The notes beneath the pieces were generated by a model that was given only the letters and a program-made list of their open reading frames with translations, ran no database searches and was not told the DNA's origin. From the IMG/VR virus record IMGVR_UViG_2778261667_000017: a stretch of 64,000 bases of DNA; one strand, 5' to 3'. The stretch is from a virus. Lineage: Duplodnaviria; Heunggongvirae; Uroviricota; Caudoviricetes. Position numbers and translations under genes: made by a program. The stretch's first letter is position 1; each line of letters opens with the position of its first letter. Positions 9,583-47,857 of the stretch are shown piece by piece.

Positions 9583-9593
9583 CTGAGGTAATT

Positions 9594-9776
9594 ATGATCA
9601 TGCTGATTCTCGCGCCTCTGGTGGGCGTGCTGGGGGCGCTTTTGCTGGCGTATGGTGCCTGGCTGATTTATCCCCCGGCGGGGTTTGTTGTTGCCGGGGC
9701 GTTGTGCCTGTTCTGGTCGTGGCTGGTGGCGCGATATCTTGACCGTACACAGTCGTCTGTCGGCGGAGGTAAATAG
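9594..9776 (+). CDS. small hydrophobic protein
   Basis: 60 aa, two hydrophobic segments. Confidence 0.35.
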
Positions 9777-11645: not shown

Positions 11646-11659
11646 TCAGGAGAAATACG

Positions 11660-12865: not shown

Positions 12866-12914
12866 TCATTCAGGGGCGCGGAACCGCGCCCCCTGTCCTG
12901 ACGGGTGAAGAATC

Positions 12915-13115
12915 ATGATCCTGAAACAAGATCTGAAATGGTCACCGGACGGTATGCGTGTTGAGGTCATTCGGGCCGGTGAGTATGACGACGGGGCGCT
13001 TCCTGCCCGGGTGCAGGAGATTGCACTTCAGGCCGGGTTAGCTGAGCGCGGAACCAGTGCAAAAAGCAGTAAAGCGGCAAAAGAGAAAAAAGCCACGACC
13101 AGTAAAGAGAGCTGA
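12915..13115 (+). CDS. hypothetical small protein
   Basis: 66 aa ORF in the head module. Confidence 0.35.
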   Translation: MILKQDLKWSPDGMRVEVIRAGEYDDGALPARVQEIALQAGLAERGTSAKSSKAAKEKKATTSKES

Positions 13116-13117
13116 GT

Positions 13118-13441
13118 ATGCTTCTGACAATGGAAGAGATTAAAGCCCAACTCCGGCTGGATGAGGATTTCGATGCTGATGACCGCCATCTGCAACTGCT
13201 GGCCTGTGCGGCGCAAAAGCGGACGGAAACGTATCTGAACCGGAAGCTCTATGCACCGGATGAATCCATTCCGGACAGCGATCCGGACGGACTGCACCTG
13301 CCGGATGATATTCGTCTGGGGATGCTGATGCTTATCAGCCATTTTTACGAAAACCGCTCGTCGGTTACGGAAGTGGAGAAACTCGACATGCCGCAGAGTT
13401 TTGGCTGGCTTGTCGGCCCGTACAGGTACTTTCCGCAATGA
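13118..13441 (+). CDS. head-tail connector protein (gp6-like)
   Basis: 107 aa, position after capsid. Confidence 0.55.
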   Translation: MLLTMEEIKAQLRLDEDFDADDRHLQLLACAAQKRTETYLNRKLYAPDESIPDSDPDGLHLPDDIRLGMLMLISHFYENRSSVTEVEKLDMPQSFGWLVGPYRYFPQ

Positions 13442-13848
13442 AAATTCGTCAGGCGCAGACCAGCGCAACCTACATTCTGCCGGACCCCGGTGAACTGAAT
13501 AAACGCGTCCTGATCCGCCTGCGGGTGGATATGCCCGCGGATAACTTTGGCGTGGAGCCTCAATACCCGGTTACGTTCCGGACATGGGCGAAGGTTATCC
13601 AGACCAGTGCCACCACCTGGCAGGAAACCGCGCAGACAGGGGACGCCATCACCCATTACATCACCATTCGTTATCGCCGGGGGATCACCGCTGATTATGA
13701 GGTGGTCTGCGGTGACAGTGTGTACCGGGTGAAACGTCAGCGCGATCTGAACGGGGCGCGGCGCTTTCTGCTGCTGGAGTGTACGGAGCTGGGCGAATTT
13801 ACGCAGAGTCACGGAGGCAGCAATGGCGACTCCCTTTTTTCACGTTGA
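13438..13848 (+). CDS. head closure / head-tail adaptor protein
   Basis: Overlapping stop-start with the previous gene. Confidence 0.5.
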   Translation: MKIRQAQTSATYILPDPGELNKRVLIRLRVDMPADNFGVEPQYPVTFRTWAKVIQTSATTWQETAQTGDAITHYITIRYRRGITADYEVVCGDSVYRVKRQRDLNGARRFLLLECTELGEFTQSHGGSNGDSLFSR

Positions 13849-14320
13849 TGTTCAGCAGCCCGCGGAGATGCGCTTTAACCGCGCCCGTGTCCGGCGGGCG
13901 TTTGTCACGATTGGGCAGCGTCATATGCGTGATGCCCGTCGGCTGGTGATGCGCCGTGCGCGGTCGGCACCAGGTGAAAACCCCGGTTATCAGACCGGAC
14001 GCCTGGCTCGTTCGATTGGTTACATGGTGCCGGGAGCCAGTAAAAAGCGAGCCGGTTTTATGACACGCATTGCCCCTAACCAGCGCAACGGGAGGGGGAA
14101 CCGGATGATCTCTGGTGACTTCTATCCGGCGTTTCTGTTTTTTGGTGTCCGGGGAGGAGCAAAACGTCGTCGCAGTCATCATCGTGGTGCATCCGGTGGC
14201 AGCGGCTGGCGACTGGCTCCACGTAATAACTTCATGGTGGAAACGCTTGAAAAGAACCGCAGCTGGACACGCTATTTTCTGGCGCGGGAATTGCGTAAAT
14301 CACTGAAGCCGGAGCGATGA
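13823..14320 (+). CDS. neck / tail completion protein
   Basis: 165 aa ORF in the neck region. Confidence 0.4.
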   Translation: MATPFFHVDVQQPAEMRFNRARVRRAFVTIGQRHMRDARRLVMRRARSAPGENPGYQTGRLARSIGYMVPGASKKRAGFMTRIAPNQRNGRGNRMISGDFYPAFLFFGVRGGAKRRRSHHRGASGGSGWRLAPRNNFMVETLEKNRSWTRYFLARELRKSLKPER

Positions 14321-14886
14321 CGCAGATGAAACTGACGCCTGTTATTGCTGCGCTGCGTGCCCGCTGCCCGTATTTTGAAAACCGGGTGGCAGGTGCGGCA
14401 CAGTTCAAAAATCTGCCGGAGGTCGGAAAGCTGAAACTCCCGGCGGCGTATGTGGTACCGGGTGATGACTCTCCTGGAGAAAACAAAAGCCAGACCGACT
14501 ACTGGCAGGAGCTGAAAGAGGGCTTCTCCGTGGTTGTCATACTGAGTAACGGGCGTGATGAGCGCGGTCAGTTTGCCTCGTATGATGTGGTGGACGATGT
14601 CCGGCAGATGCTCTTTAAGGCCCTGCTGGGCTGGAACCCGGAAGCGTGCGGTAACCCGATTACCTATGACGGCGGCACGCTGCTGGATCTGAATCGTCAT
14701 GAGCTGATTTATCAGTTCGATTTTTCGGTCATCAGCGAGCTGACCGAAGACGATACCCGCCAGCAGGATGATCTGAACAGTCTGGATGAACTGCAAACGC
14801 TGGCGATTGATGTTGATTATCTCGAGCCCGGTAACGGGCCTGACGGCGATATCGAACATCACACCGAAATACCCCTTCCTTCCTGA
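14317..14886 (+). CDS. virion structural protein (tail completion-like)
   Basis: 189 aa, overlapping start. Confidence 0.4.
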   Translation: MTQMKLTPVIAALRARCPYFENRVAGAAQFKNLPEVGKLKLPAAYVVPGDDSPGENKSQTDYWQELKEGFSVVVILSNGRDERGQFASYDVVDDVRQMLFKALLGWNPEACGNPITYDGGTLLDLNRHELIYQFDFSVISELTEDDTRQQDDLNSLDELQTLAIDVDYLEPGNGPDGDIEHHTEIPLPS

Positions 14887-14894
14887 GGATCATC

Positions 14895-15065
14895 ATGTTT
14901 GTCAAACCTGTTAAAGGGCGGTCAGTGCCTGACCCTGCCCGCGGTGACTTTTTGCCCGCCGAAGGGCGAAATGTTGACGAGAACAACTACTGGCTGCGCC
15001 GTGAAGCAGCGGGTGATATCCGGCGCGTGAATAAAAAGGTGAACACCGATGACGATAAGCTTTAA
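14895..15065 (+). CDS. small protein preceding the tail sheath (Mu-like module)
   Basis: 56 aa ORF MFVKPVKGRSV, not in the ORF track (below its size cut-off); overlaps the sheath start. Confidence 0.35.
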   Translation: MFVKPVKGRSVPDPARGDFLPAEGRNVDENNYWLRREAAGDIRRVNKKVNTDDDKL

Positions 15066-16545
15066 CACCATTCCGTCGAATACGCTGGTTCCGCTGTTTT
15101 ATGCGGAAATGGATAACCAGGCGGCGAATACTGCACAGGACAGCGGAGCATCGCTGCTGATTGGTCATGCCAATAACGGTGCAGAGATTGTTGCCAACAG
15201 TCTGGTGCTGATGCCGTCGGCAGACTATGCACGCCAGATTTGTGGTGCGGGAAGTCAGCTGGCGCGTATGGTCGAGGCTTATCGCCAGACCGACCTGTTT
15301 GGCGAGCTGTATGTGATTGCCGTTCCGGAAGCCACAGGCGCGGCGGCAACGGTTACGCTGACGGTGACCGGGGAAGCAACCGAAAGCGGCACGGTGAATG
15401 TCTATGTGGGACGTACCCGCGTGCAGGCTCCGGTGACCAACGGCGATAACGTCACGACGATTGCCAGCAGTATCCAGGATGCCATCAATGCCGTTCCGAC
15501 TCTGCCGTTTACAGCTTCATCTTCAGCTGGTGTTGTCACGCTGACCGCGCGTCATAAGGGGCTTTGCGGGAATGAAATTCCTGTCAGCCTCAATTACTAC
15601 GGCTTCGGTGGGGGCGAAGTGCTGCCAGCGGGCGTACAGATTGCCGTGGCGACGGGGACCGCCGGAACGGGCGCTCCGGTTCTCACCGGCGCGGTGGCTG
15701 CAATGGCGGATGAGCCGTTTGATTATATCGGCCTGCCGTTCAACGACACGGCCTCCGTTAACACGCTGGTGACTGAGATGAACGATACCAGCGGTCGCTG
15801 GAGCTATGCGCGTCAGCTGTATGGTCATGTGTATACGGCAAAGACCGGTACGCTGTCAGAACTGGTGACCGCAGGTGACCAGTTTAACCAGCAGCACATT
15901 ACCCTGGCGGGGTACGAAAAAGAGACCCAGACGCCTGCCGACGAACTGGCGGCAAGCCGTACCGCCCGCGCAGCGGTGTTTATTCGCAACGATCCGGCAC
16001 GTCCCACGCAGACCGGTGAGCTGGTGGGTATGCTGCCTGCGCCGAAGGGGAAACGGTTCACGATGACCGAACAACAGACCCTGCTGTCTCATGGCGTGGC
16101 AACGGCGTATGTCGAAAGCGGGGTACTGCGCATTCAGCGTGATGTCACCACGTACAGGAAAAACGCTTACGGGGTTGCGGATAACAGCTACCTAGACAGT
16201 GAGACTCTGCATACCAGCGCGTATGTACTGCGCAAACTGAAATCCGTCATTACCAGTAAGTACGGGCGTCACAAGCTTGCCAGTGACGGTACCCGCTTTG
16301 GTCCCGGTCAGGCAATTGTCACCCCGGCGGTGATCAAAGGGGAACTGCTGGCAACCTACCGTCAGCTTGAGCGTGCGGGGATCGTGGAAAACTACGAACT
16401 GTTTAAGCAGTACCTGGTTGTGGAGCGTGATGCCAGCGATCCGAACCGCCTGAACACGCTGTTCCCGCCTGACTATGTTAACCAGTTGCGTGTCTTTGCC
16501 GTGGTTAACCAGTTCCGTCTTCAGTATTCAGAGGAGTCTGCATAA
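15049..16545 (+). CDS. contractile tail sheath protein (Mu gpL-like)
   Basis: 498 aa; followed by tube, chaperone and tape measure. Confidence 0.8.
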   Translation: MTISFNTIPSNTLVPLFYAEMDNQAANTAQDSGASLLIGHANNGAEIVANSLVLMPSADYARQICGAGSQLARMVEAYRQTDLFGELYVIAVPEATGAAATVTLTVTGEATESGTVNVYVGRTRVQAPVTNGDNVTTIASSIQDAINAVPTLPFTASSSAGVVTLTARHKGLCGNEIPVSLNYYGFGGGEVLPAGVQIAVATGTAGTGAPVLTGAVAAMADEPFDYIGLPFNDTASVNTLVTEMNDTSGRWSYARQLYGHVYTAKTGTLSELVTAGDQFNQQHITLAGYEKETQTPADELAASRTARAAVFIRNDPARPTQTGELVGMLPAPKGKRFTMTEQQTLLSHGVATAYVESGVLRIQRDVTTYRKNAYGVADNSYLDSETLHTSAYVLRKLKSVITSKYGRHKLASDGTRFGPGQAIVTPAVIKGELLATYRQLERAGIVENYELFKQYLVVERDASDPNRLNTLFPPDYVNQLRVFAVVNQFRLQYSEESA

Positions 16546-16901
16546 TGGCCCGTATCGGGGGAACCTGTTATTTCAAAATTGACGGTCAGCAGCTATCGCT
16601 GGCCGGCGGCATTGAGGTGCCCATGAACAGGACGGTCAATGATGACATCATCGGCCTGGACGGTTCAGTGGACCGCAAGGAAACTCACCGTGCGCCTTAT
16701 GTCAAAGGGACCTTCAAGGTGCCGAAGAATTTTCCGGTGAGCAAAATCACCTCGTCTGATGAGATGACCATCACTGCCGAGCTGGCGAACGGTCAGGTCT
16801 ATGTACTGTCGTCTGCCTGGCTGCATGGCGAAGCGAACCATAATGCCGAAGAAGGCACGGTTGATCTTGAGTTCCACGGTGAAGAAGGGGATTACCAGTA
16901 A
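16545..16901 (+). CDS. tail tube protein
   Basis: 118 aa directly after the sheath. Confidence 0.7.
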   Translation: MARIGGTCYFKIDGQQLSLAGGIEVPMNRTVNDDIIGLDGSVDRKETHRAPYVKGTFKVPKNFPVSKITSSDEMTITAELANGQVYVLSSAWLHGEANHNAEEGTVDLEFHGEEGDYQ

Positions 16902-17170
16902 TGAAAGAGCTTGAGTTAAAGAAACCGATCACTGCTCATGGCGAGACACTCTCCGTACTGGAGTTTGATGAGCCCACCGGGAAAGATGTCCGCGAGCTGG
17001 GGTATCCCTACCAGATGAATCAGGATGAGTCCGTCAGACTTCTGGCGCATGTGGTGTCGAAATACATTGTGCGGCTGGCGAAAGTGCCGCAAAGCTCTGT
17101 CGACCAGATGTCTCCGGCAGACATGAATGCAGCGGCGTGGCTTGTGGCTGGTTTTTTCCTCCAGGCCTGA
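16901..17170 (+). CDS. tail assembly chaperone
   Basis: 89 aa before the tape measure; overlapped by a -1 frame ORF. Confidence 0.6.
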   Translation: MKELELKKPITAHGETLSVLEFDEPTGKDVRELGYPYQMNQDESVRLLAHVVSKYIVRLAKVPQSSVDQMSPADMNAAAWLVAGFFLQA

Positions 17171-17319
17171 CGGCTGAATACCTCACTGATCGCTTCTTTG
17201 ACTGCGCCAGCTACTGGCACATTAATCCCTTCGAATTGCTGAATATGCCGATCAGTGAAATTCCCTTACTGGTCAGTCAGGCAAACAGGATAGAGCAGGA
17301 GAAACGCACACATGGCTGA
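17137..17319 (+). CDS. tail assembly chaperone frameshift extension (-1 frame)
   Basis: ORF in the -1 frame overlapping the chaperone 3' end; slippery heptamer T_TTT_TTC at 17152..17158. Confidence 0.45.
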   Translation: MACGWFFPPGLTAEYLTDRFFDCASYWHINPFELLNMPISEIPLLVSQANRIEQEKRTHG

Positions 17320-19144
17320 ATTTGAGCTTAAGGCGTTGATCACCGGTGTCGACAGGCTTTCTCCCGCGCTGTCGAAAATGCAAAAGAAAATCCGGGGATT
17401 TAAACGCCAGGCGGAAGAAGCGTCACAGGGTGGGCTGGCGCTTGGTGGCGGACTGGCTGCGGGTCTGACGCTTTCCCTGAAATCTTATGCCGATCAGGAA
17501 AACGCCGCCACCGGGCTGAAAGTTGCCATGATGGATGCGAACGGTGAGGTCGGAAAGAGCTTTCAGGACATCAATAAACTGGCTATTGGTCTGGGTAACC
17601 AGCTACCCGGTACAACGGCTGATTTCCAGAACATGATGCAGATGCTGGTGCGTCAGGGGATCCCGGCAGAAAACATTCTGGGCGGTGTGGGTAAAGCGAC
17701 AGCTTATCTTGCGGTACAACTGAAAAAAACACCGGAAGCGGCTGCCGAGTTTGCCGCAAAGATGCAGGATGCTACCGGAACGGCGTCAGAAGACATGATG
17801 GGGCTGTTCGACACTATCCAGAAGGCGTTTTATCTGGGCGTTGACGATACCAACATGTTGTCCTTCTTCACTAAAACCAGCTCTGTTCTGAAGATGGTGA
17901 ACAAGGACGGTCTTCAGGCTGCACAGAGCCTTGCCCCCATCAGCGTCATGATGGATCAGATGGGGATGAACGGGGAATCGGCAGGTAACGCCCTGCGAAA
18001 AGTTATCCAGTCCGGATTAAGCGTTAAGAAAATCAGGGACGTCAATAAAATCATGGCCCGCCAGAAACTCGGGGTACAGCTCGATTTTACTGACGGCAAA
18101 GGGAGTTTTGGCGGTCTTGATAACATGTTCAGGCAACTGGCAAAGCTGCGAAAACTGACCGACGTTAAGCGAACAGGTGTACTTAAGGCAATATTTGGTG
18201 ATGATGCCGAAACCCTTCAGGTGGTCAATGCACTAATCGATAAAGGAAAGGATGGCTACGATCAGATCCAGCAGAAGATGAATAAACAGGCCAGCCTGAA
18301 TAAACGTGTGCAGGCACAGCTTGGTACGCTGTCCAACCTGTGGGAGGCAATGACAGGGACCGCAACTAACGGCCTTGCGGCTATTGGCGGCGCATTTTCT
18401 GGTGACGCTAAAAATATCACGCAATGGCTGGGGGAGTTGGGGGAGAAATTCACGAAGTTTGCGGATGAAAATCCCCGGGTTATTCGCGGCGTCGTCGGGC
18501 TTGCTGCCGGTCTTGCGATTCTGAAACTGGGATTGATGGGCGTTGGCGGTGCCATCAGTATTGTCAGCAGGATCATGTCGATGACGCCGATTGGCATGAT
18601 TGCGACGGCGATAGCCCTGGCTGCGGGATTAATTATCACTAACTGGGATGTTGTCGGACCTTATTTTAAGAAACTCTGGGAAACCATTGGTCCTTATTTT
18701 GAGGCTGGCTGGGAACTCCTTAAGAAAGTTTTTGCCTGGTCGCCGCTGGGGATGGTGATCAATAACTGGGGGCCGGTTGTTAAGTGGTTTCAGGATATGT
18801 GGGACAAGCTGAAGCCAATTATTGAGTGGTTTACCGACAGTTCCGGTGACACGGACGATGCCATTAACTCTGCGCAGTGGGGCGCGGGTGCTTATGATGC
18901 TTATGGGACGGGAATACCGGCGCGGGGATACACACCTTATCAGGCGGTAGATCCGGCTCAGTCAAACAACGCCTCCGATGCCACAGGCCCGAATCCCTTC
19001 ATGATCAACAAAGCTTCTGCGCCAAAAGTTGATGGTGAGATCAAGGTCTCTTTTGTGAATTCGCCTCCGGGTATGCGGGTTACGGAAACACGTTCCAGTG
19101 GCATTGATATTAATCACGATGTTGGGTACACCAGATTTAGGTAA
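17312..19144 (+). CDS. tail tape measure protein
   Basis: 610 aa; Gly/Ala-rich hydrophobic central region. Confidence 0.8.
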   Translation: MAEFELKALITGVDRLSPALSKMQKKIRGFKRQAEEASQGGLALGGGLAAGLTLSLKSYADQENAATGLKVAMMDANGEVGKSFQDINKLAIGLGNQLPGTTADFQNMMQMLVRQGIPAENILGGVGKATAYLAVQLKKTPEAAAEFAAKMQDATGTASEDMMGLFDTIQKAFYLGVDDTNMLSFFTKTSSVLKMVNKDGLQAAQSLAPISVMMDQMGMNGESAGNALRKVIQSGLSVKKIRDVNKIMARQKLGVQLDFTDGKGSFGGLDNMFRQLAKLRKLTDVKRTGVLKAIFGDDAETLQVVNALIDKGKDGYDQIQQKMNKQASLNKRVQAQLGTLSNLWEAMTGTATNGLAAIGGAFSGDAKNITQWLGELGEKFTKFADENPRVIRGVVGLAAGLAILKLGLMGVGGAISIVSRIMSMTPIGMIATAIALAAGLIITNWDVVGPYFKKLWETIGPYFEAGWELLKKVFAWSPLGMVINNWGPVVKWFQDMWDKLKPIIEWFTDSSGDTDDAINSAQWGAGAYDAYGTGIPARGYTPYQAVDPAQSNNASDATGPNPFMINKASAPKVDGEIKVSFVNSPPGMRVTETRSSGIDINHDVGYTRFR

Positions 19145-19176
19145 AGACGAACAGGGAGGGCCGCCCCTCCCTGAAC

Positions 19177-19623
19177 TTACTGTGCGAACACGCAATTTCG
19201 GCCTGATGGGGAGCCGACAATTCTGGACATTTTTTCGCAAATAATAGTTACCTGTTCTCCTTTTTTAAGAGCAGCAGCTGTTGATTTTTCAGAGTCTTGC
19301 ATCTCCATTCTTGCTGGCATGAATTCATTTTCAGTTCTGAATTTAATAATTATAGAGTCAGTAAAGTCCTTATCAATGGATTGTACGATACCTCTAACGG
19401 CGATTAATTTACCTTTTAACTGTTCATCGGTAGCGACTTCATTTTCTTCATACTCTTTAAACAGCTGTCGAGCAGTAGTGTTGTAGATTTCTTTTTGCGG
19501 TGCCGCAGCTTCCGTATCGGATGAGTATGAAGAATTAGAGCCTTTATCGTTATTGCCTGCAAAATATCCAATAATCACCAACCCGATGAAAATATATAAA
19601 ATCCATTTTAATAATTTCTTCAT
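19177..19623 (-). CDS. exported or membrane-anchored OB-fold-like protein (resembles the tRNA_anti-like family, from memory)
   Basis: 148 aa; N-terminal hydrophobic anchor LLKWILYIFIGLVIIGYFAG; AT-rich; sole reverse-strand gene inside the tail module. Confidence 0.55.
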   Translation of the reverse strand: MKKLLKWILYIFIGLVIIGYFAGNNDKGSNSSYSSDTEAAAPQKEIYNTTARQLFKEYEENEVATDEQLKGKLIAVRGIVQSIDKDFTDSIIIKFRTENEFMPARMEMQDSEKSTAAALKKGEQVTIICEKMSRIVGSPSGRNCVFAQ

Positions 19624-19733
19624 GTTATCACCTTAATGCTAATAATTTATATGGTTACAAATGGTAATGGCTACCACTACAAATTATGGCATTACCAGTA
19701 AATATTACTACTGATAATAAATATGGGAGTTAT

Positions 19734-21062
19734 ATGACGTGGAAAGACAGACTTCAGGACGCGTCATTTCGCGGTGTGTCGTTTAAGGTTGAAGAAGAAA
19801 GTGCGGGAACCGGCCGTCGTGTGGAAACACACGAATACCCGAACCGCGACAAACCCTATACCGAAGACCTGGGGAAAATCACTTTCCGCCCGTCCATCAC
19901 GGCTTATGTGGTGGGAGATGACTGCTTTGACCAGCGCGATCGCCTGATTGACGCGCTGAATAAACCCGGTCCCGGCACGCTTGTCCATCCGACATACGGT
20001 GAACTGAAAGTCTGTGTTGACGGGGAAGTTCGGGTCAGCACATCGAAAAGTGAAGGACGTATTGTCCGCTTTGACCTGAAGTTTGTCGAAGCAGGAGAGC
20101 TCTCTTACCCCACATCAGGTGCGGCGACGGCGCAGACGCTGATGTCATCCTGTTCTGCACTGGATGACTGCATCAGTGACAGCTTCAGCGGTTTCAGTAT
20201 CGATGGCGTGGCGGATTTTGTGCAGAACGACGTCGTTGGTAATGTCAGCACAATGCTTGGGTATGTTTCTGATGCGATGAAAGTGGTGGATTCTGCCGTA
20301 TCGGATGCGGCCAGGCTGTTGCAGGGGGATATCTCGGTACTTCTGCCGCCACCATCGTCAGGCAAAAATTTCGTTGAGCAGGTGCAGAAAATGTGGCGTA
20401 CCGGGAAACGCCTTTATGGTAACGCCAGCGACCTGGTCACCATGATCAAAACGCTTTCCGGTGTCAGCCTCGGCAGCGATCTGCAACCGCGCGGCGTCTG
20501 GAAAACGGACAGTAAAACCACCGCCACGGCTACGCAGCAGCGTAACGTGGTTGCCAGCACCCTTCGTACGACCGCAATCAGCGAAGCGGCGTATGCCGTC
20601 ACCCGATTGCCTGCGCCAACAACTTCCTCGGTGATGCAGAATGCCGCAGTGGGGCAGGCAACAACACCTGCGCAGAGCACTGGCTGGCCTTCCGTCACGC
20701 ATCCGGCACTGAACAATGCACCGGCGGTGAAAAACACAGTTGACCTGCCGACGTGGGAAGAACTGACTGACATTCGCGACACACTGAATACGGCAATTGA
20801 TAAGGAGTTGTCCCGTACAACCAGTGATGCGCTGTTTCTGGCGCTGCGCCGGGTGAAAGCAGATCTGAATGCGGATATCAACACGCGCCTTGAACAGTCT
20901 GCACGGATCATTCAGCGCACGCCGGATGAGGTTTTACCCGCGTTGGTGCTGGCGGCGACCTGGTTTGATAACGCGGCGCGTGACGCGGACATTATCCGGC
21001 GTAATGCCATTACGCATCCCGGCTTTGTGCCGGTGATCCCTCTGAAGGTGCCAGTGCAATGA
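19734..21062 (+). CDS. DNA circularisation protein (Mu gpN-like)
   Basis: Follows the tape measure; start chosen at MTWKDRLQ after a GGGAG ribosome-binding site. Confidence 0.7.
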   Translation: MTWKDRLQDASFRGVSFKVEEESAGTGRRVETHEYPNRDKPYTEDLGKITFRPSITAYVVGDDCFDQRDRLIDALNKPGPGTLVHPTYGELKVCVDGEVRVSTSKSEGRIVRFDLKFVEAGELSYPTSGAATAQTLMSSCSALDDCISDSFSGFSIDGVADFVQNDVVGNVSTMLGYVSDAMKVVDSAVSDAARLLQGDISVLLPPPSSGKNFVEQVQKMWRTGKRLYGNASDLVTMIKTLSGVSLGSDLQPRGVWKTDSKTTATATQQRNVVASTLRTTAISEAAYAVTRLPAPTTSSVMQNAAVGQATTPAQSTGWPSVTHPALNNAPAVKNTVDLPTWEELTDIRDTLNTAIDKELSRTTSDALFLALRRVKADLNADINTRLEQSARIIQRTPDEVLPALVLAATWFDNAARDADIIRRNAITHPGFVPVIPLKVPVQ

Positions 21063-22138
21063 ACGATAACGTCACGCTACGGGTAAATGGCCGGGAGTGG
21101 AATGGCTGGACATCGGTGCGCATCGGTGCCGGTGTTGAACGACTGGCGCGGGATTTCAGTGTGGAGATCACCCGCCAGTGGCCGGGAGATGAGGGGATCA
21201 CCACGCTTCAGCCGCGCATTAAAAACGGTTCAAAAGTGGAAGTGCTGATTGGTGATGAGCTGGTGATCACCGGCTGGGTGGAGGCGACGCCCGTTCGTTA
21301 CGATGCCCGTTCGGTCAGCACCGGTATTGCCGGACGCAGTCTGACCGCTGATCTGATTGACTGTGCAGCCGAACCGACACAGTTTAACGGACGATCGCTG
21401 GTACAGATTGCGCAGGCGCTTGCTGCGCCCTTCGGCATTGAGGTGGTGAACAACGGTGCGCCGTCGGGTGTTATTCCTGACGTCCAGCCTGATCACGGTG
21501 AAACGGTGATTGAGGTAATCAACAAAATACTCGGTCAGCAGCAGGCACTGGCTTACGACGACCCGCACGGCAGGCTGGTGATTGGCGGTATTGGCTCAAC
21601 GCGGGCACATACTGCACTGGTACTTGGGGAAAACATCCTTTCCTGCGATACGGAGAAGAGTATCCGGGAGCGGTTTTCTGTTTACCAGGTGGCGGGGCAG
21701 CGTGCCGGAAACGACGATGATTTCGGTGAGGCCACCACCACCGCGCTGCGGGCCCGCACAGAGGACGCATTTATTGCCCGTTACCGTCCGATGTATATCA
21801 GGCAGACAGGGCAGGCCACGGGGGCAGGCTGTATTGCGCGTGCTGACTTTGAAGCCCGGCAACGGGCGGCGCGGACGGATGAAACCACCTATGTGGTGCA
21901 GGGCTGGCGACAGGGTAACGGTACGCTGTGGCAGCCCAACCAGCGGGTGATTGTCTTCGATCCGGTCTGTGGTTTTGACAATACCGAACTGCTTGTCTCG
22001 GAAGTCACGTTTACTCAGGACCAGAATGGCACCCTGACGGAAATCCGTGTCGGCCCGCCTGATGCTTATCTGCCTGAACCCGAAGACCCCGGCGCGCGGA
22101 AAAAGAAAAAAGCCAGAGTACAGGAGGACCCGTTCTGA
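21059..22138 (+). CDS. baseplate hub protein (Mu gpP-like)
   Basis: 359 aa, overlapping start. Confidence 0.7.
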   Translation: MNDNVTLRVNGREWNGWTSVRIGAGVERLARDFSVEITRQWPGDEGITTLQPRIKNGSKVEVLIGDELVITGWVEATPVRYDARSVSTGIAGRSLTADLIDCAAEPTQFNGRSLVQIAQALAAPFGIEVVNNGAPSGVIPDVQPDHGETVIEVINKILGQQQALAYDDPHGRLVIGGIGSTRAHTALVLGENILSCDTEKSIRERFSVYQVAGQRAGNDDDFGEATTTALRARTEDAFIARYRPMYIRQTGQATGAGCIARADFEARQRAARTDETTYVVQGWRQGNGTLWQPNQRVIVFDPVCGFDNTELLVSEVTFTQDQNGTLTEIRVGPPDAYLPEPEDPGARKKKKARVQEDPF

Positions 22139-22686
22139 TGAGGACGATTGAAGCCATGCAGCGACAACTCCTCGGCCTGATTGGGCGGGCCGTGGTGAAA
22201 AGCATCAGTGCCGCCACGAAATGTCAGACCGTGGATGTGTCCCTGATTGCCGGTGAACCCAAAGCCGGGATTGAACATCTTGAACCCTACGGTTTTACCG
22301 CAAGGGCAAACAGCGGTGCGGAAGCGGTGGTGTTGTTTCCGGATGGCGACCGTTCTCATGCGGTGGTTGTTACGGTGTCGGACCGGCGCTACCGCCTGAA
22401 AGGGCTGCAGACGGGTGAGGTGGCTGTCTATGACGATCAGGGGCAGTCCGTGACGCTGACCCGGGAGGGGATCGTGGTGGACGGTGCAGGTAAAACGATC
22501 ACGTTTCGCAATGCACCTGAAGCACGTTTTGAAATGGACCTGGAAGTGACAGGACAGGTGAAAGACCTGTGCGACTCCGGCGGCACCACCATGTCAGCGA
22601 TGCGGCTTGCCTATAACGGCCATCGTCACAGAGAGAACGGTCAGGGCAGTAACACCGATAAACCTGATAAAGCGATGGAGGCATGA
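22138..22686 (+). CDS. baseplate assembly / spike protein (Mu gp45-like)
   Basis: 182 aa. Confidence 0.65.
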   Translation: MRTIEAMQRQLLGLIGRAVVKSISAATKCQTVDVSLIAGEPKAGIEHLEPYGFTARANSGAEAVVLFPDGDRSHAVVVTVSDRRYRLKGLQTGEVAVYDDQGQSVTLTREGIVVDGAGKTITFRNAPEARFEMDLEVTGQVKDLCDSGGTTMSAMRLAYNGHRHRENGQGSNTDKPDKAMEA

Positions 22687-23111
22687 TGGAACTGTGGCTG
22701 ACGGTGAACGGTAAACGCACCTGCGCCAGCGCACCGCTGGATCCGCTGACCCGCGCCGTGGTGATTTCCCTGTTCACCTGGCGGCGGGCGGAGCCTGATG
22801 ACAACGCCGACGTCCCGATGGGATGGTGGGGGGATTCCTGGCCTGCGGTACAGAATGACCGTTACGGTTCTCGACTGTGGCTGCTTCAGCGCAGCAAACT
22901 GACCAATCAGCTGGTACAGACGGTAAGGGGATATATCCGCGAATGCCTGCAATGGATGATTGATGATGGCGTGGTGTCCCGTATTGATCTGGATATCCGT
23001 CGCACCGGGATTAATGAGCTGGGTAACAGTATCACCCTCTGGCGTCGTGACGGACCGGTAATGATTTCTTTTGATGATCTGTGGAGTGCGATAACGCATG
23101 GCGGACAGTGA
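22683..23111 (+). CDS. baseplate protein (Mu gp46-like)
   Basis: 142 aa. Confidence 0.6.
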   Translation: MMELWLTVNGKRTCASAPLDPLTRAVVISLFTWRRAEPDDNADVPMGWWGDSWPAVQNDRYGSRLWLLQRSKLTNQLVQTVRGYIRECLQWMIDDGVVSRIDLDIRRTGINELGNSITLWRRDGPVMISFDDLWSAITHGGQ

Positions 23112-24156
23112 ATTTCAGCGCCCGACGCTGGCAGAAAATATCAGTATGCTCCGTAACGATTTATTCGCCAGGCTGGACGTCAGCGACACGCTCCGGCGCA
23201 TGGATGAAGACGTGCGGGCAAAGGTGTATGCGGCGGCGCTGCATACGGTTTACGGGTACATCGATTATCTGGCAATGAACATGCTGCCTGACCTGTGCGA
23301 TGAGTTCTGGCTGGCGCGACATGCTGCGATGAAACGGTGTCCGCGCAAGGGTGCCACAGCTGCCAGCGGGTATATGCGCTGGGAAGGCGTCAGCGATGGC
23401 CTGAAGGTGACCGCCGGGAGTGTTATTCAGCGCGATGACCTGGTTCAGTACACGGCAACTGCCGATGCAACCAGCTCCGGTGGTGTCCTGCGCCTGCCGA
23501 TCGCCTGTTCAACTGCAGGCGCGGTCGGTAACGCTGACGACGGTACGGCATTAATCCTGGTCACGCCGGTGAATGGTCTGCCGTCTTCCGGTGTGGCTGA
23601 CACCCTGACAGGCGGATTTGATACTGAAGAGCTGGAAACGTGGCGCGCCCGCGTCATTGAGCGGTATTACTGGACGCCGCAGGGCGGGGCTGACGGGGAC
23701 TATGTTGTCTGGGCTAAAGAAGTGCCCGGCATTACCCGCGCATGGACATACCGTCACTGGATGGGAACGGGAACTGTCGGTGTGATGATTGCCAGCAGTG
23801 ACCTGATTAATCCCATTCCGGAAGAATCAACGGAAACGGCAGCAAGACAACATATCGGGCCACTGGCCCCGGTGGCAGGCTCTGATTTGTATGTATTCAG
23901 GCCGGTGGCGCATAAAGTGGATTTTCATATCCGCGTGACGCCGGACACACCAGAAATACGGGCTGCCATTACCGCGGAGTTGCGTTCGTTCCTGCTGCGT
24001 GATGGTTATCCGCAGGGAGAGCTGAAGGTGTCGCGTATCAGTGAAGCGATTTCCGGTGCGAACGGGGAATACAGCCATCAGTTGCTTGCACCGGCAGACA
24101 ATATCTCCATTGCGAAAAACGAACTGGCGGTTCTGGGGACGATTTCATGGACGTGA
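23098..24156 (+). CDS. baseplate J-like protein (Mu gp47-like)
   Basis: 352 aa. Confidence 0.75.
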
Positions 24157-24731
24157 CAAACGATGATTACATCCGTCTGTTGTCAGCACTGTTGCCGCCC
24201 GGTCCGGCGTGGTCAGCCAGCGATCCGGCGATTGCCGGTGCAGCACCGTCATTAACCCGTGTTCATCAGCGTGCGGATGCCCTGATGCGGGAGCTGGATC
24301 CGCGCACCACCACCGAACTGATAAACCGCTGGGAGCGTCTGTGCGGCCTGCCGGATGAATGTATTCCCGCAGGGACACAGACCCTTCGCCAGCGTCAGCA
24401 ACGGCTGGATGCGAAGGTTAACCTGGCGGGCGGCATCAACGAGGATTTTTATCTTGCACAGCTTGCTGCCCTGGGCAGACCAGATGCCACCATCACGCGA
24501 TACGACAAAAGCACCTTCACCTGCTCATCGGCCTGTACTGACGCGGTGAATGCGCCGGAATGGCGGTATTACTGGCAGGTCAACATGCCAGCTGCCACCA
24601 ACACCACCTGGATGACATGTGGTGATCCCTGTGATTCCGCACTGCGTATCTGGGGCGACACCGTTGTCGAGTGTGTGCTTAACAAACTCTGCCCTTCGCA
24701 TACCTACGTAATTTTTAAATATCCGGAGTAA
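24147..24731 (+). CDS. tail protein (Mu gp48-like)
   Basis: 194 aa. Confidence 0.6.
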
Positions 24732-24734
24732 TCC

Positions 24735-25397
24735 ATGCATCGTATAGACACGAAAACCGCGCAGAAGGATAAGTTCGGCGCGGGTAAGAGCGGTTTTACC
24801 CGTGGTAACCCCCAGACCGGCACACCTGCCACCGATCTGGATGATGACTACTTTGACATGTTGCAGGAAGAACTCTGCAGCGTGGTGGAGGCATCCGGTG
24901 TCAGCCTGGAGAAGGGGCGGCATGACCAGCTGCTTACCGCGCTTCGTGCGCTGCTGTTAAGCCGCAAGAATCCGTTTGGCGATATCAAATCGGATGGCAC
25001 GGTGAAAACGGCTCTCGAAAACCTTGGTTTGGGAGAAGCGGCAAAACGGGATGTGGGGACAGGGGAAAATCAGATACCGGACATGGCCTCTTTTGCCAGT
25101 GGTGATGGATGGATGAAATTACCCAACGGGAAAATCCTGCAATATGGTCGTGGTGCGGTTACGCCGACATTATCGACGCAAACAATGAGAATTACATTCA
25201 GCATCCCTTTCCCCAAAAAAGCGGACTGCGCCATGCTTACTCATTCTGGTGATGGCGGTGCGCCTTTAGGCGCTGGGCGAGGGTTCGTGATGACTGCAGA
25301 AGGCCCAACGTTAACCGGCTTTAATTCTGCTTACAGAACGTCATCAACCAGCGACACGGTATCGATGAATTACAGTTGGTGGGCTGTTGGTGAGTAA
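24735..25397 (+). CDS. tail fibre protein, constant N-terminus fused to the currently expressed variable C-terminus
   Basis: 220 aa; crosses the left inversion site at the GLGE codons. Confidence 0.75.
25014..25038. repeat. left inversion site (gix/pix-like)
   Basis: ctcgaaaaccttggtttgggagaag; the 13 bp ggtttgggagaag recurs inverted at 26903..26915. Confidence 0.65.
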
Positions 25398-25408
25398 TTT
25401 TATTCAGG

Positions 25409-25861
25409 GTGATTTATATGAACGAATATGTTTATAGCGCAAGGCATAATGCTTTTTTCCCTGTGGATATGATTGATAAATATAAATCAGAGGGATGGGA
25501 TTTATCAGACGCTAAGGAAGTAAATCAAAATATTATCAGTGAGTTTATGGCTGAACCGCCACAAGGAAAAATCCGTATTGCCGGAGATGATGGGCTGCCT
25601 GCGTGGGCAGATATTCCTCCACCCACGCATGAAGAGCTTATTGAAATTACTGAATCAGAAAGACAGCTACTAATTAACCAGGCCAACGAATACATGAACA
25701 GTAAGCAATGGCCCGGTAAAGCCGCTATTGGTCGTCTGAAAGGTGAGGAACTGGCGCAATATAATTTGTGGCTGGATTATCTGGATGCACTGGAGCTGGT
25801 TGATACCTCCAGTGCGCCAGATATTGAATGGCCTACGCCTCCGGCAGTTCAGGCCAGATAA
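25409..25861 (+). CDS. tail fibre assembly protein (expressed orientation)
   Basis: Ends ...SSAPDIEWPTPPAV, the conserved tail-fibre-assembly C-terminus. Confidence 0.7.
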   Translation: MIYMNEYVYSARHNAFFPVDMIDKYKSEGWDLSDAKEVNQNIISEFMAEPPQGKIRIAGDDGLPAWADIPPPTHEELIEITESERQLLINQANEYMNSKQWPGKAAIGRLKGEELAQYNLWLDYLDALELVDTSSAPDIEWPTPPAVQAR

Positions 25862-26435
25862 CATCCGGCGCGGTGCTGGTATCTGTTGCCGTCACCGCGT
25901 CAATGTAATCCAGCACAGCGTTAAGTCTGGTTGTTTCTGCCTGCGTCAGTTTACGTCCGGCCTGCAATTTCAGTTGAATCAGACTGATGGAAGCCATTGC
26001 TGCATCAATCAGTGACTGGCGCTGTGCTTCTGCCGCTTCTACTGCGGCACCGTGTTGTGCCTCAGTATCTGTCACCCATTTTTCACCATCCCATTTATCG
26101 TATGGCGTTAACGGGGCGATAGTGGTTGTATTTTCGGGATAGTCGCCTAGTGCTGTGATTCCTTTGGCATCTCCCGTTTCGGTGTTATAGACGATTTCAC
26201 CGCGATGGTCTGACACATATTCCCATGATTTTAAATCCACAGAACGGCAAATTGTATAACCAGCCTTAGATGTACCAGGAGCGTCTAAACAGGAATATGC
26301 TGGAATACCGACACCCACTGCAAGATATTCAGTTGATGCAGAAATATATTCCCGCGTCTCACCATCATAGTTATAGACGGTAATATTCCCCGCCTTCGTG
26401 GTAATAAGCTCGCTATTTAATACGGCGTTATCCAT
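25833..26435 (-). CDS. tail fibre assembly protein (alternative, silent orientation)
   Basis: Ends ...TSTAPDVIWPELPEA; convergent with the other assembly gene. Confidence 0.7.
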   Translation of the reverse strand: MDNAVLNSELITTKAGNITVYNYDGETREYISASTEYLAVGVGIPAYSCLDAPGTSKAGYTICRSVDLKSWEYVSDHRGEIVYNTETGDAKGITALGDYPENTTTIAPLTPYDKWDGEKWVTDTEAQHGAAVEAAEAQRQSLIDAAMASISLIQLKLQAGRKLTQAETTRLNAVLDYIDAVTATDTSTAPDVIWPELPEA

Positions 26436-26915
26436 TATGCAGCCCTCACGATATAGTTAAATGCAATATTTCGTGGACGGGTTTCACTCCCGCCAGTATT
26501 ACCGATACTCCCTCGTGAATGAAGTGTCGGTGATGGGATCAGAGTTCCGCCTGCACTGGTAGCATCCAGCCCCTTGCCCTGTGTATATGTATTTCGGAAG
26601 ATTGTTGCCAGCTCCCATTCCTCTTTTGAATCATGCCCATCGTTAGCTACAACAAAATGACGGTGCTTTTCCAGCATTCCGGCCTGAATACTCAATAAAA
26701 CACGTCCTGCATCAATACCGCGCCCGTCATCCCAGCCACGAATAAACTCACCGCGTAAATCAGGTAATTTATTTGTTGGATAAGCCTTTGCCAGTTCCGG
26801 GTATTCTTCAGCAGAAAATGCCGCACCGTTGCATTTCAGCCAGCCTGTTGGCGGTGTGACTGAAGACCATGGAACAGGCACACCAACAGGTAATGCAGAG
26901 CCTTCTCCCAAACCA
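26435..26915 (-). CDS. alternative tail-fibre C-terminal cassette (promoterless; fused to the constant region after inversion)
   Basis: Reading frame continues through the right inversion site with GLGEG matching GLGEA of the expressed fibre. Confidence 0.6.
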
Positions 26916-26927
26916 ACGTTTATGAAA
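26903..26927. repeat. right inversion site (gix/pix-like)
   Basis: cttctcccaaacc is the reverse complement of the left-site core; lies just upstream of the invertase gene. Confidence 0.65.
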
Positions 26928-26982
26928 ATGCAGAAATAACGAGCAAATGGCATCATTCCTGCTTTTGTCAGGGGGATCTACC

Positions 26983-27537
26983 ATGCTTATTGGCTATGTA
27001 CGCGTATCAACAAATGACCAGAACACAGATCTACAACGTAATGCGCTGAACTGTGCAGGATGCGAGCTGATTTTTGAAGACAAGATAAGCGGTACAAAGT
27101 CCGAAAGGCCGGGACTGAAAAAACTGCTCAGGACATTATCGGCAGGTGACACGCTGGTGGTCTGGAAACTGGACCGGCTGGGGCGCAGTATGCGGCATCT
27201 TGTCGTGCTGGTGGAGGAGTTGCGCGAACGAGGCATCAACTTTCGTAGTCTGACGGATTCAATTGATACCAGTACCCCAATGGGGCGCTTTTTCTTTCAT
27301 GTGATGGGTGCCCTGGCTGAAATGGAGCGTGAACTGATTGTTGAAAGAACAAAAGCTGGACTGGAAGCTGCTCGCGCACAGGGACGAATTGGTGGACGTC
27401 GTCCCAAACTTACACCAGAACAATGGGAACAGGCCGGACGATTAATTGCATCAGGAGTTCCTCGCCAGAAGGTGGCGATTATCTATGATGTTGGTGTGTC
27501 AACTTTGTATAAGAGGTTTCCTGCAGGGGATAAATAA
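26983..27537 (+). CDS. pin: DNA invertase, serine recombinase (Pin/Gin/Hin family)
   Basis: MLIGYVRVSTNDQNTDLQRNAL...; start at the internal Met after the inversion site. Confidence 0.9.
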   Translation: MLIGYVRVSTNDQNTDLQRNALNCAGCELIFEDKISGTKSERPGLKKLLRTLSAGDTLVVWKLDRLGRSMRHLVVLVEELRERGINFRSLTDSIDTSTPMGRFFFHVMGALAEMERELIVERTKAGLEAARAQGRIGGRRPKLTPEQWEQAGRLIASGVPRQKVAIIYDVGVSTLYKRFPAGDK

Positions 27538-27643
27538 AGTTAAAGACACTTTGTGTACAAAAGAAAGTAAAACAACAGCAACTTGTTGCAATTTTATCAA
27601 TAAAAGTAGTATTGTCGTGAAAAATTGATTAAAGATTAATATT

Positions 27644-28477
27644 ATGCATGTTTTTGATAATAATGGAATTGAACTGAAAGCTGAGTGTTCGATAGGTGAA
27701 GAGGATGGTGTTTATGGTCTAATCCTTGAGTCGTGGGGGCCGGGTGACAGAAACAAAGATTACAATATCGCTCTTGATTATATCATTGAACGGTTGGTTG
27801 ATTCTGGTGTATCCCAAGTCGTAGTATATCTGGCGTCATCATCAGTCAGAAAACATATGCATTCTTTGGATGAAAGAAAAATCCATCCTGGTGAATATTT
27901 TACTTTGATTGGTAATAGCCCCCGCGAGATACGCTTGAAGATGTGTGGTTATCAGGCTTATTTTAGTCGTACGGGGAGAAAGGAAATTCCTTCCGGCAAT
28001 AGAACGAAACGAATATTGATAAATGTTCCAGGTATTTATAGTGACAGTTTTTGGGCGTCTATAATACGTGGAGAACTATCAGAGCTTTCACAGCCTACAG
28101 ATGATGAATCGCTTCTGAATATGAGGGTTAGTAAATTAATTAAGAAAACGTTGGGTCAACCCGAGGGCTCCAGGAAACCAGTTGAGGTAGAAAGACTACA
28201 AAAAGTTTATGTCCGAGACCCGATGGTAAAAGCTTGGATTTTACAGCAAAGTAAAGGTATATGTGAAAACTGTGGTAAAAATGCTCCGTTTTATTTAAAT
28301 GATGGAAACCCATATTTGGAAGTGCATCATGTAATTCCCCTGTCTTCAGGTGGTGCTGATACAACAGATAACTGTGTTGCCCTTTGTCCGAATTGTCATA
28401 GAGAATTGCACTATAGTAAAAATGCAAAAGAACTAATCGAGATGCTTTACGTTAATATAAACCGATTACAGAAATAA
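27644..28477 (+). CDS. mcrA: McrA-like HNH nuclease (type IV modification-dependent restriction)
   Basis: 277 aa; C-terminal HNH motif CENCG...HHVIPLSSGG...CPNCH; same position after pin as mcrA in K-12 e14 (from memory). Confidence 0.75.
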   Translation: MHVFDNNGIELKAECSIGEEDGVYGLILESWGPGDRNKDYNIALDYIIERLVDSGVSQVVVYLASSSVRKHMHSLDERKIHPGEYFTLIGNSPREIRLKMCGYQAYFSRTGRKEIPSGNRTKRILINVPGIYSDSFWASIIRGELSELSQPTDDESLLNMRVSKLIKKTLGQPEGSRKPVEVERLQKVYVRDPMVKAWILQQSKGICENCGKNAPFYLNDGNPYLEVHHVIPLSSGGADTTDNCVALCPNCHRELHYSKNAKELIEMLYVNINRLQK

Positions 28478-28710
28478 AATTGTTTATTAAAGTCACATTT
28501 AAGACGTAATACCCTACAGGGTAAAAATTTTCTCTGATCTTAACTTCTGCAAATGTTAACTGCTATTTTTATGCTAAAAATGGTTATCAAAACTCAAAAA
28601 CACATGTTTATAATCAATGAGTTATAGAAATGCTAAGGGCTAATGAGTTATATGCAAATTAGTAAAATTATGTTGCTATCTCAAATAGTTACGATTTAGT
28701 CATCTAACTA

Positions 28711-28875
28711 ATGCTGCGCCATATGGGTTGGACTGAAGCGGCTGACCTGATTGTTAAAGGTATGGAAGGCGCAATCAATGCCAAGACCGTAACCTATGAC
28801 TTCGAACGTCTGATGGAAGGCGCTAAACTGCTGAAATGTTCAGAGTTTGGTGACGCGATCATCAAGAATATGTAA
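28711..28875 (+). pseudogene. icd: icd 3' fragment (isocitrate dehydrogenase C-terminal about 54 codons, no upstream coding body)
   Basis: Translates [54 protein letters not shown], matching the Icd C-terminus from memory with about two substitutions. Confidence 0.8.
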
Positions 28876-28898
28876 TCACTACATGTGTTAAATATTGA

Positions 28899-28927
28899 AA
28901 CGGGCGTATAACACGCCCGTTGTTTTA
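28899..28927 (+). terminator. intrinsic terminator after the icd fragment
   Basis: aacgggcgt-ataac-acgcccgtt hairpin followed by gttttat. Confidence 0.5.
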
Positions 28928-28988: not shown

Positions 28989-30131
28989 CTATGCTGTTTT
29001 GATATCTACGATAATCCAGTCTTTACCACGATCATCATTGTATCGGTCGGTCATTTTTCTGGATTTATGACCTAACAACTTTTGCGTATCCAGACCCTGT
29101 TCCCGATATAACCGTTCTGACAGAGATCGCTGCTCATGAAATGTGGGCGCAGTTCCTTGCTCCCATTTTATGCCACATTTTTCCCTGGCCTTTTTAAAAG
29201 CCGTTGTAAGAGTATTTGCAGACACCTGGTCTCCTCTGTTTGCTTGAGAGGTAGTGTGACGGTAATGGACCAGATATTTACTAACAACAGCATCCCTGCA
29301 CTGAGATATAACTTCACGAAGGGTAATATTCAGAGCATCGCATTTCAGGTTAAGCGGAATAGCAAGTTTTGAACCGGTTTTTTCCTGAGTAATGTGCAAC
29401 ATGTCGTCCCAGATATCAGAGAATTTCAAATTGCAGATATCGCCTAAACGTTGTCCAGTGACAAGAGCAAGTAGCATCCCGCATTTTAAATAGGGCTGCC
29501 GTCTGCTTACGCTGTCAAATATTGCCTGCCATTCGGGCAGTGATAATCTTTGGCGGTTTACTCGATTTCGCGGTTGTTTTGTTGCCTGCGCTGGGTTAAA
29601 TCCTGGCGGAACATGTCCGGCGTGTTGTGCTTCTTTGAAGACGTCGATCAACACCATTCTCACGACTTGCGCCATCCTGTTATGACCTTCAGCCTTTACA
29701 GCATCAATTATTTCGGCAATATCAAGTGCGGTAATATCCTTGAGGTGTTGCATTCCACAATGCTCACGGAAAAGACGAATGGGTTTGCCTTTTTGCCGAT
29801 AGGAGTTGGGTCTTAGTTCATTATGTTGCAGCCTGTCCTCCTGGATAGAAATATATTTATCAAGCCATTCTGTCACCGTAATGTCTGAGCGCCTGCCTTT
29901 CATTCTTTCCAGACGCTCATTGACGCTTAATATTTGTCGGGTACGTTGTTCAGCAATAATGGTATTTGCTTCAGTAGCAACTTGTTTTGCTTCATTCTCA
30001 TCAGTTCCTAAGCTATGAAAACGACCGGATAGTGGATGTTTGTATTGCCAATATACCTTTCCGGTTCGCTTATCTAATTTGCAATATAAATTGGGTATAG
30101 AGATTTTGTGAGATCGGGGGCTAGCAGCCAT
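28989..30131 (-). CDS. int: tyrosine integrase
   Basis: 380 aa; C-terminal catalytic region with ...HEQRSLSERLYREQG...LLGHKSRKMTDRY. Confidence 0.9.
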   Translation of the reverse strand: MAASPRSHKISIPNLYCKLDKRTGKVYWQYKHPLSGRFHSLGTDENEAKQVATEANTIIAEQRTRQILSVNERLERMKGRRSDITVTEWLDKYISIQEDRLQHNELRPNSYRQKGKPIRLFREHCGMQHLKDITALDIAEIIDAVKAEGHNRMAQVVRMVLIDVFKEAQHAGHVPPGFNPAQATKQPRNRVNRQRLSLPEWQAIFDSVSRRQPYLKCGMLLALVTGQRLGDICNLKFSDIWDDMLHITQEKTGSKLAIPLNLKCDALNITLREVISQCRDAVVSKYLVHYRHTTSQANRGDQVSANTLTTAFKKAREKCGIKWEQGTAPTFHEQRSLSERLYREQGLDTQKLLGHKSRKMTDRYNDDRGKDWIIVDIKTA

Positions 30132-36598: not shown

Positions 36599-37249
36599 TT
36601 ATGGAAGGTTTGCTATTTTTGCATCGACAACTACACCGATGATTTTGCAGTTCCCGTTGATCTCAATCATCGGATATTGTGGGTTAAGTGGTTTTAGAAA
36701 CCTTCTGCCAGCATCAATAACTAACTTCTTGAAAGTTGCCTCGTTTTCTCCTTCGAGCTTTGCCACTACCAGCTTCCCATTACGAGGTTCTACTTCAGGA
36801 TCGACTAGTATTATCATCCCTTCCGGGATGCTAAGACCGGCTGGAGCCGTCATCGAATCACCCTTTACGTCCAGCCAAAACGAATCTTCTGAACAATCTA
36901 CGGTTGTATCGTACCAGTTATCTATTGCACGCTTATGATATGGCTCTACAGCTTCCATCCAACATCCTGCGCTTACCCAACTAATTAGAGGATACGAACC
37001 TCTTGGATCATGCCTGCTGTGATAGGCAATGTTTGAAAGACTATCTTCTCCTTTCAACAAGTAATCAGGGGAGCACTGTAAAGCCTTGGCTAAAGCCAAT
37101 AGGTTTTCGCCATTGGGCTCAGTTTCAGAACGCTCCCATTGGGAAATAGCAACATTAGACACGCCAACCATCTTGCCAAGGGCAGCCTGCCTAATCTTAA
37201 GTTCTTTTCTGCGAGCGCGAATACGCTCACCCATCAGTTGTGTATTCAT
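36599..37249 (-). CDS. CI-type repressor (P22 C2-like; helix-turn-helix plus S24 peptidase domain)
   Basis: 216 aa MNTQLMGERIRARRKELKIRQAALGKMVGVSNVAISQWERSE; C-terminal autocleavage domain. Confidence 0.9.
   Translation of the reverse strand: MNTQLMGERIRARRKELKIRQAALGKMVGVSNVAISQWERSETEPNGENLLALAKALQCSPDYLLKGEDSLSNIAYHSRHDPRGSYPLISWVSAGCWMEAVEPYHKRAIDNWYDTTVDCSEDSFWLDVKGDSMTAPAGLSIPEGMIILVDPEVEPRNGKLVVAKLEGENEATFKKLVIDAGRRFLKPLNPQYPMIEINGNCKIIGVVVDAKIANLP

Positions 37250-47831: not shown

Positions 47832-47857
<26 letters not shown>
47312..47857 (+). CDS. nu1: terminase small subunit Nu1
   Basis: MEVNKKQLADIFGASIRTIQNWQEQGMPV, lambda Nu1 from memory. Confidence 0.95.

Follow-up and report, generated by a model that had tools for sequence, protein, structure and literature searches.

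Does the region around a short tail-fibre gene in a 64,000-nucleotide stretch of viral DNA (IMG/VR record IMGVR_UViG_2778261667_000017, Caudoviricetes; the whole stretch is hereafter called the window) hold a DNA-inversion switch and, if so, which one, and does it still work? With high confidence, we identify it as the DNA-inversion switch formed by the P segment and PinE in prophages of the e14 family. The switch is real and, judged from its intact parts and from its relatives, very probably active. The system itself is already known, being the textbook P segment of the defective prophage e14 (Plasterk and van de Putte, 1985, as cited in PMC4272514), here with different cargo alleles and in a fuller prophage. 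In a megablast search against complete Escherichia coli genomes, the relatives of the region are annotated, in order, as ymfQ, tail fibre, two tail fibre assembly proteins, tail fibre, pinE, mcrA and an icd fragment. The window likewise has ymfQ upstream, pinE-mcrA-icdC downstream and the e14 pix sites in between, and the setting is that of the e14 family, a prophage inserted at icd and adjoining mcrA.

Two e14-type crossover sites

The segment is delimited by two sites of 26 bp in inverted orientation, each with a 12-2-12 architecture and a central TT/AA. The left site, pixL (25012..25037, + strand), consists of CTCTCGAAAACC, TT and GGTTTGGGAGAA, with the crossover dinucleotide at 25024-25025, and the right site, pixR (26903..26928, read on the + strand), of TTCTCCCAAACC, AA and CGTTTATGAAAA, with the crossover dinucleotide at 26915-26916, so that the central dinucleotides lie 1,891 bp apart. 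In reverse complement, pixR becomes TTTTCATAAACG-TT-GGTTTGGGAGAA and matches pixL at 21 of the 26 positions: the inner half-sites agree fully, as does the central dinucleotide, whereas the outer half-sites differ. Both sites are base for base those of K-12 e14, and pixL aligns with gixL of phage Mu and cixL of phage P1. In the reference records of these two phages, the same central dinucleotide marks the annotated ends of the segment and the points of crossover. The original prediction of a 25 bp site with a 13 bp core repeated in inverted orientation 1.9 kb away was right about the inverted sites and their spacing, but the sites measure 26 bp and the perfect core common to both copies 15 nt (TTGGTTTGGGAGAAG).

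Chance repeats of 12-13 nt are generally frequent in this region according to a repeat search, and this frequency is all that speaks for regarding the inverted repeat as a chance match, or an assembly artefact, without a recombination function. The repeat is the top inverted repeat of the 6-kb neighbourhood (20 nt with 19/20 matches, 25019-25038 vs 26902-26921), and its 20-mer, with up to 3 mismatches allowed, occurs at two places in the 64 kb, 0.00 being expected from 100 dinucleotide-preserving shuffles. Together with the identity of the sites to characterised ones and with natural flips whose breakpoints fall exactly within them (described below), this refutes a chance or artefactual origin, the probability of which is practically nil. 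No further crossover site was found in the 64-kb window with 3 mismatches allowed, and a generic search for the core did not rise above chance. A multiple-inversion system, such as Min of p15B or the shufflons, was also considered and rejected, given that it needs more than two sites and only two occur in the 64 kb.

The invertase and its presumed enhancer

A serine invertase gene had been predicted just beyond the right site, and an intact one is present: pinE (26983..27537, + strand) starts 54 nt past the end of pixR and encodes 184 aa, within the size range of the family (about 180-195 aa), with a Resolvase domain (PF00239, E 1.5e-51) followed by an HTH_7 domain (PF02796, E 1.4e-13) at residues 138-181. 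The protein is identical to K-12 PinE at 180/184 residues (98%), matches the structures of Mu Gin over its full length (3UJ3 and 4M6F, E about 1e-94; best 5.5e-95) and also matches the DNA-binding domain of Hin (1HCR). Its YVRVSTNDQ motif, holding the catalytic serine of the invertase family (Ser9), aligns to Gin 4M6F. These similarities identify PinE, on sequence grounds, as a small serine recombinase of the Gin/Hin/Cin/Pin group.

A Fis-dependent recombinational enhancer is presumed at 27001..27072 (+ strand), in the 5' end of pin (nt 19-90), by homology to the enhancer that the phage P1 record annotates at nt 19-90 of cin. The homologous stretch is identical to K-12 pinE at 72/72 positions, to cin at 57/72 and to gin at 55/72. 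It holds G-N13-C motifs at pin nt 22 and 71, a spacing of 49 nt that compares with 47 bp between the Fis sites of Hin (PMC3798978); this crude pattern would fit an enhancer but is too degenerate to count as evidence.

Predicted effect of inversion on the fibre and its chaperone

According to the list of open reading frames (ORFs) and to Pfam, the region 24735-27537 comprises five genes, pinE among them. The gene expressed in the present orientation is a tail-fibre gene of 220 aa (24735..25397, + strand), whose reading frame passes through pixL, as had been proposed: its constant N-terminal part (24735-25023) lies outside the segment, and its variable C-terminal part (25024-25397), a Gp53-like_C domain (PF21882, E 3e-12), lies inside. 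It is followed by a TfaP-type tail-fibre assembly (chaperone) gene of 147 aa (25418..25861, + strand; Caudo_TAP, E 2e-31), which pairs with the expressed tip and whose homologue in the relative GF131 is annotated as a tail fiber assembly protein. On the minus strand, a second, TfaE-type assembly gene of 200 aa (25833..26435; Caudo_TAP, E 4e-32), with 173/200 residues identical to K-12 TfaE, is silent in the present orientation. It is accompanied by an alternative, StfE-type fibre C-terminus (26435..26916, - strand; Collar, PF07484, E 1e-14), which has no start codon of its own within the segment; its ORF (26435-26956) extends to ATG codons at 26956/26953, beyond the segment, and the K-12 counterpart is annotated as the stfE pseudogene. 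The segment holds, as predicted, two convergent sets of a fibre C-terminus and an assembly protein. On opposite strands, the two chaperone genes have 29 nt in common (25833-25861), as they do in K-12, and the stretches coding for their homologous C-termini amount to a weak inverted repeat within the segment (25771-25788 / 25897-25914). Save for these two chaperone genes matching each other, no second invertase and no additional fibre or chaperone paralogue was found in the window. The G+C content of the segment (44-51%) is below that of the structural operon (55%).

The codon phase is the same in both arms, position 25024 being the second codon position of the fibre ORF and position 26916 the second of the minus-strand ORF. 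When the flipped sequence was built in silico by reverse-complementing 25024-26916, the 96-aa constant N-terminus was joined in frame to the other C-terminus, giving a 256-aa ORF directly followed by the 200-aa chaperone gene. The swap of fibre tip and chaperone claimed by the original prediction is thereby reproduced in the coding sequence. Both fibre forms contain the four residues GLGE, which the shared inner half-site encodes, and the annotation of E. coli strain NWU_4 holds the 256-aa fibre ORF as a 771-nt coding sequence.

Both orientations occur in nature

For an orientation census, complete E. coli genomes were searched by megablast with the window orientation and with the in-silico flipped query, counting a genome when one collinear match covered at least 80% of the 2.9-kb query; the middle part makes up 65% of the query, which makes counting in the wrong orientation impossible. 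The window orientation was found in 74 genomes and the flipped one in 84. Two pairs of near-clonal strains fix the breakpoints. Over 5,840 bp, E. coli NWU_1 and NWU_4 show no difference other than in the 1,863 bp between the repeats, which are exact reverse complements of each other. For the O157:H7 strains ECP19-598 and ECP19-2498, the only differences in 8,839 bp are one 1,893-bp flip at the same sites and one single-nucleotide polymorphism 2 kb off. Inversion is observed for this family of loci, the evidence coming from relatives rather than from sequencing reads of this strain. In K-12, both orientations of the e14 segment coexist in clonal cultures, as seen by whole-genome sequencing and PCR (PMC4272514). 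Inversion there reaches about 30% in the wild type by quantitative PCR, is driven by PinE and also by PinQ/PinR, and the pinE mutant is locked (PMC12529663).

The present assembly captures a single orientation, as had been noted from the start, and e14-type elements are often defective, K-12 e14 being without 13 kb of structural genes. Both facts would fit a fossil switch, whose anatomy is kept while the segment no longer inverts in this strain, for example with a silent pin or in a decaying prophage. We nevertheless consider this very improbable: pin is full length and retains Ser9, the sites and the enhancer stretch are identical to those of the active K-12 system, and near-clonal strains with the same cassette differ by exact flips, which argues that inversion is recent and frequent. 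Moreover, even the defective K-12 element inverts (PMC12529663, PMC4272514). An active switch in this strain is the reading that we retain, as a very probable one.

Proposed mechanism of the switch

The Hin/Fis invertasome mechanism described in PMC3798978 provides the basis for the model proposed here. PinE dimers would bind both 26-bp sites and, aided by the host protein Fis at the presumed enhancer within the 5' end of pin, would come together as a synaptic tetramer (the invertasome) where supercoiled DNA branches. Ser9 would then cut both sites at the central TT/AA, and a 180-degree rotation of the subunits followed by religation, possible because the central TT/AA is identical in both sites, would invert the 1.9-kb segment. 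The sole fibre start codon and the upstream late operon lie left of pixL, and therefore the orientation decides which set is expressed behind the constant, baseplate-proximal part of 96 aa. The first option would be the Gp53-like tip with the TfaP-type chaperone, and the second the Collar-domain StfE-type tip with the TfaE-type chaperone. A population of lysogens would in this way probably release particles of two receptor specificities.

Some points weigh against an active host-range switch in this strain. Besides the single orientation in the assembly, Fis binding and enhancer function are here deductions from homology alone. A promoter and terminator scan of 24000-28900 gave no enrichment (10 promoter-like matches vs 8.0 expected; 3 terminators vs 4.8) and so points to no particular promoter for the fibre, pin or the stub ORF described below; the proposed course of transcription is read from the arrangement of the genes. 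The window does not extend to the left end of the prophage, and the viability of the phage, on which any relevance of the switch to particles depends, is presumed.

A possible role in defence against phages

A different explanation for the persistence of the switch comes from K-12, where inversion of the P segment creates the chimera StfE2, which blocks adsorption of phage T2 (PMC12529663). Accordingly, the host might keep the switch mainly as an anti-phage device, in which one orientation joins a short stub ORF, beginning just outside pixR, to the other fibre tip; the product would be a small StfE2-like protein that masks a surface receptor and blocks adsorption of other phages. The same 18-codon stub (MMPFARYFCIFINVGLGE; ATG 26956/26953, - strand) is present in the window, and flipped relatives annotate the stub-tip fusion as a 136-aa gp53-like protein. 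However, a search for a promoter or ribosome-binding site of the stub gave nothing convincing, and the stub differs at 3 of its 18 residues between the window and phage pro483. The T2 result is not transferable, since the Gp53-like_C tip of the window has no nucleotide similarity to the StfP tip of K-12, and the full structural operon is present, which makes the classical function sufficient. We therefore regard defence as the main reason for keeping the switch as unlikely, although it is compatible with the classical host-range function.

A more specific form of this idea, which we take to be a long shot, is that the stub, fused in the flipped orientation to the Gp53-like tip of the window, an allele unlike that of K-12, is a small secreted or surface protein that guards the lysogen by receptor masking against a phage other than T2. 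If true, the StfE2 mechanism would extend to a family of interchangeable blocking tips, and the sharp pixL boundary common with P2-like phages would imply that phages trade, via the crossover site, not only host ranges but also defence specificities. The classical host-range switch remains the preferred interpretation in what follows.

Comparison with K-12 e14

The window and K-12 e14 have the same gene order (ymfQ, stf, tfa / tfa, stf', pinE, mcrA, icdC), and the orientation in the window is that of the MG1655 reference. Identity at the DNA level to the MG1655 region annotated as cryptic prophage e14 reaches 96.8% up to 25047, the constant fibre part standing at about 97%, and 97.3% over the stretch that starts at 26683 and takes in pin, mcrA and icdC. 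In contrast, positions 25048-25705, which hold the left tip and the N-terminal half of its chaperone, are without DNA similarity to K-12; the right tip is diverged in its middle (26486-26682), and the TfaE side has 87-90% DNA identity. Fibre residues 1 to about 101 are near-identical to K-12 StfP whereas the remainder is unrelated, and the 220-aa fibre of the window and the 209-aa one of K-12 have only 127 identical residues. The segment is also 64 bp longer in the window, with 1,891 bp between the crossover points compared with 1,827 bp in K-12. The variable cassettes of K-12 (StfP/TfaP and TfaE/StfE) are not those of the window. By this comparison, what separates the locus from K-12 is only its receptor-binding alleles, as allelic variation of the cargo and not of the switch.

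The prophage around the switch differs as well. The window prophage keeps the full head and tail operon, of which K-12 e14 lacks 13.2 kb: the latter matches the window at 8446-10183 and then again from 23369. By these alignments, the K-12 remnant is a similar prophage with a 13.2-kb deletion from portal to baseplate J (window 10183-23369), which accounts for the K-12 pseudogenes beeE and jayE.

Related invertible cassettes in other phages and bacteria

The Mu G segment with Gin and the P1 C segment with Cin have the same layout as the window, namely a constant S part, a site, the Sv-U / U'-Sv' arms, a second site and the invertase. Mu gix, P1 cix and the sites in the window have the 12-2-12 architecture and AAACC..GGTTT cores in common, and the enhancer presumed for the window would sit, like those of Mu and P1, within the 5' part of the gene for the invertase. 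They differ in that Mu gix is a perfect inverted repeat, whereas the outer half-sites in the window are not alike, and in that the window fibres are much shorter (220/256 aa), with unrelated tip domains and in a different type of phage. The Hin/H segment of Salmonella flagellar phase variation employs the same recombinase subfamily and the Fis/enhancer invertasome mechanism (PMC3798978), and PinE has been reported to complement Hin (PMC12529663), but Hin flips a promoter while the switch in the window swaps coding 3' ends.

With the P2-like phage pro483 (Peduovirus), the window shares the whole cassette between the left site and the end of the invertase gene, both sites included, at 93% identity over 25013-26489 and 82% over 26679-27512. 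In contrast, its constant fibre part and all flanking genes are unrelated to those of the window, the similarity beginning abruptly at the left site. This sharp boundary shows that the cassette moves between phage types as a module. In the serotype-converting Shigella phages SfII, SfI, SfIV and SfV, the structural module is about 97% identical to that of the window to about 55 bp beyond the left site. The short tail-fibre gene of SfII carries an intact pixL-like sequence (SfII 1755-1790; window 25012-25092), and neither a second site nor an invertase was found in the 6 kb of SfII read. The SfII fibre is probably fixed and non-switching, its site being either an orphan crossover site or the mark of a fixed derivative. 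In the partial record of phage vB_EcoM-689R6 (ON470584.1, 21826-23850), pixL and 204 nt of a StfE-type arm are followed by icdC-mcrA-pin in reverse, a junction that is either an odd rearrangement or a misassembly from mixed orientations of the invertible segment.

Prophage context and neighbouring genes

The upstream late/structural operon, from terminase to baseplate, is complete by ORF lengths, and its closeness (about 97%) to the inducible Shigella phages SfII, SfI, SfIV and SfV suggests that the host element is an apparently complete SfV/SfII-like myovirus prophage. Directly after pin, as in e14, stands an intact gene for McrA, a Type IV methyl-directed restriction enzyme (27644-28477; 275/277 residues identical to K-12), in whose position the O157:H7 relatives have a GIY-YIG protein. 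McrA was the only PADLOC match among the neighbouring genes of unknown function. In the e14-like prophage, two adjacent genes at 1689-4081 (- strand) lie upstream of the genes for lysis and terminase; they encode a 404-aa protein without a Pfam or PADLOC match and a 391-aa NA37 (NdpA-like nucleoid-associated) protein. The closest relative, GF131, has no similarity before window position 4718, though the stretch compared ends short of this pair, which may be a cargo or defence module.

Two prophages are arranged in tandem at icd. The e14-like element ends at the icd 3' fragment (28711-28875), directly followed by a lambda-type integrase gene (28989-30131, - strand), whose product shares 60% identity with K-12 IntE. 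With this gene begins a second, lambdoid prophage, which extends to the end of the window (64000) and includes an S24 repressor (36599-37249), lysis genes (45150-46320), large ORFs at the expected terminase and portal position (47832-51558) and a lambda-type tape measure gene (57672-60251). Just upstream of the lysis genes lies a cargo block (42204-44962) encoding a Blc-like lipocalin (42204-42728, - strand), a DUF523/DUF1722 protein (42921-43880) and an AraC-type regulator (44222-44962). A 319-aa ORF in this prophage, of the size of a Shiga-toxin A subunit, proved to be the DUF523/DUF1722 protein, and a toxin locus was accordingly rejected. A tRNA scan found no genes.

Implications

The current understanding of the P segment is unchanged by these results, and their practical value is small. 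For annotation, the locus is best described as an invertible P segment together with pinE; the ORF on the minus strand that appears as a "tail fiber protein" is the silent alternative tip and no independent gene. Assemblies of strains of this kind can legitimately disagree on the orientation of the segment, and mixed reads may break the assembly at the locus. The cassette boundary at the left site illustrates the exchange of invertible tips between unrelated phages, and the switch, residing here in a seemingly complete prophage, could still control the host range of the particles released.

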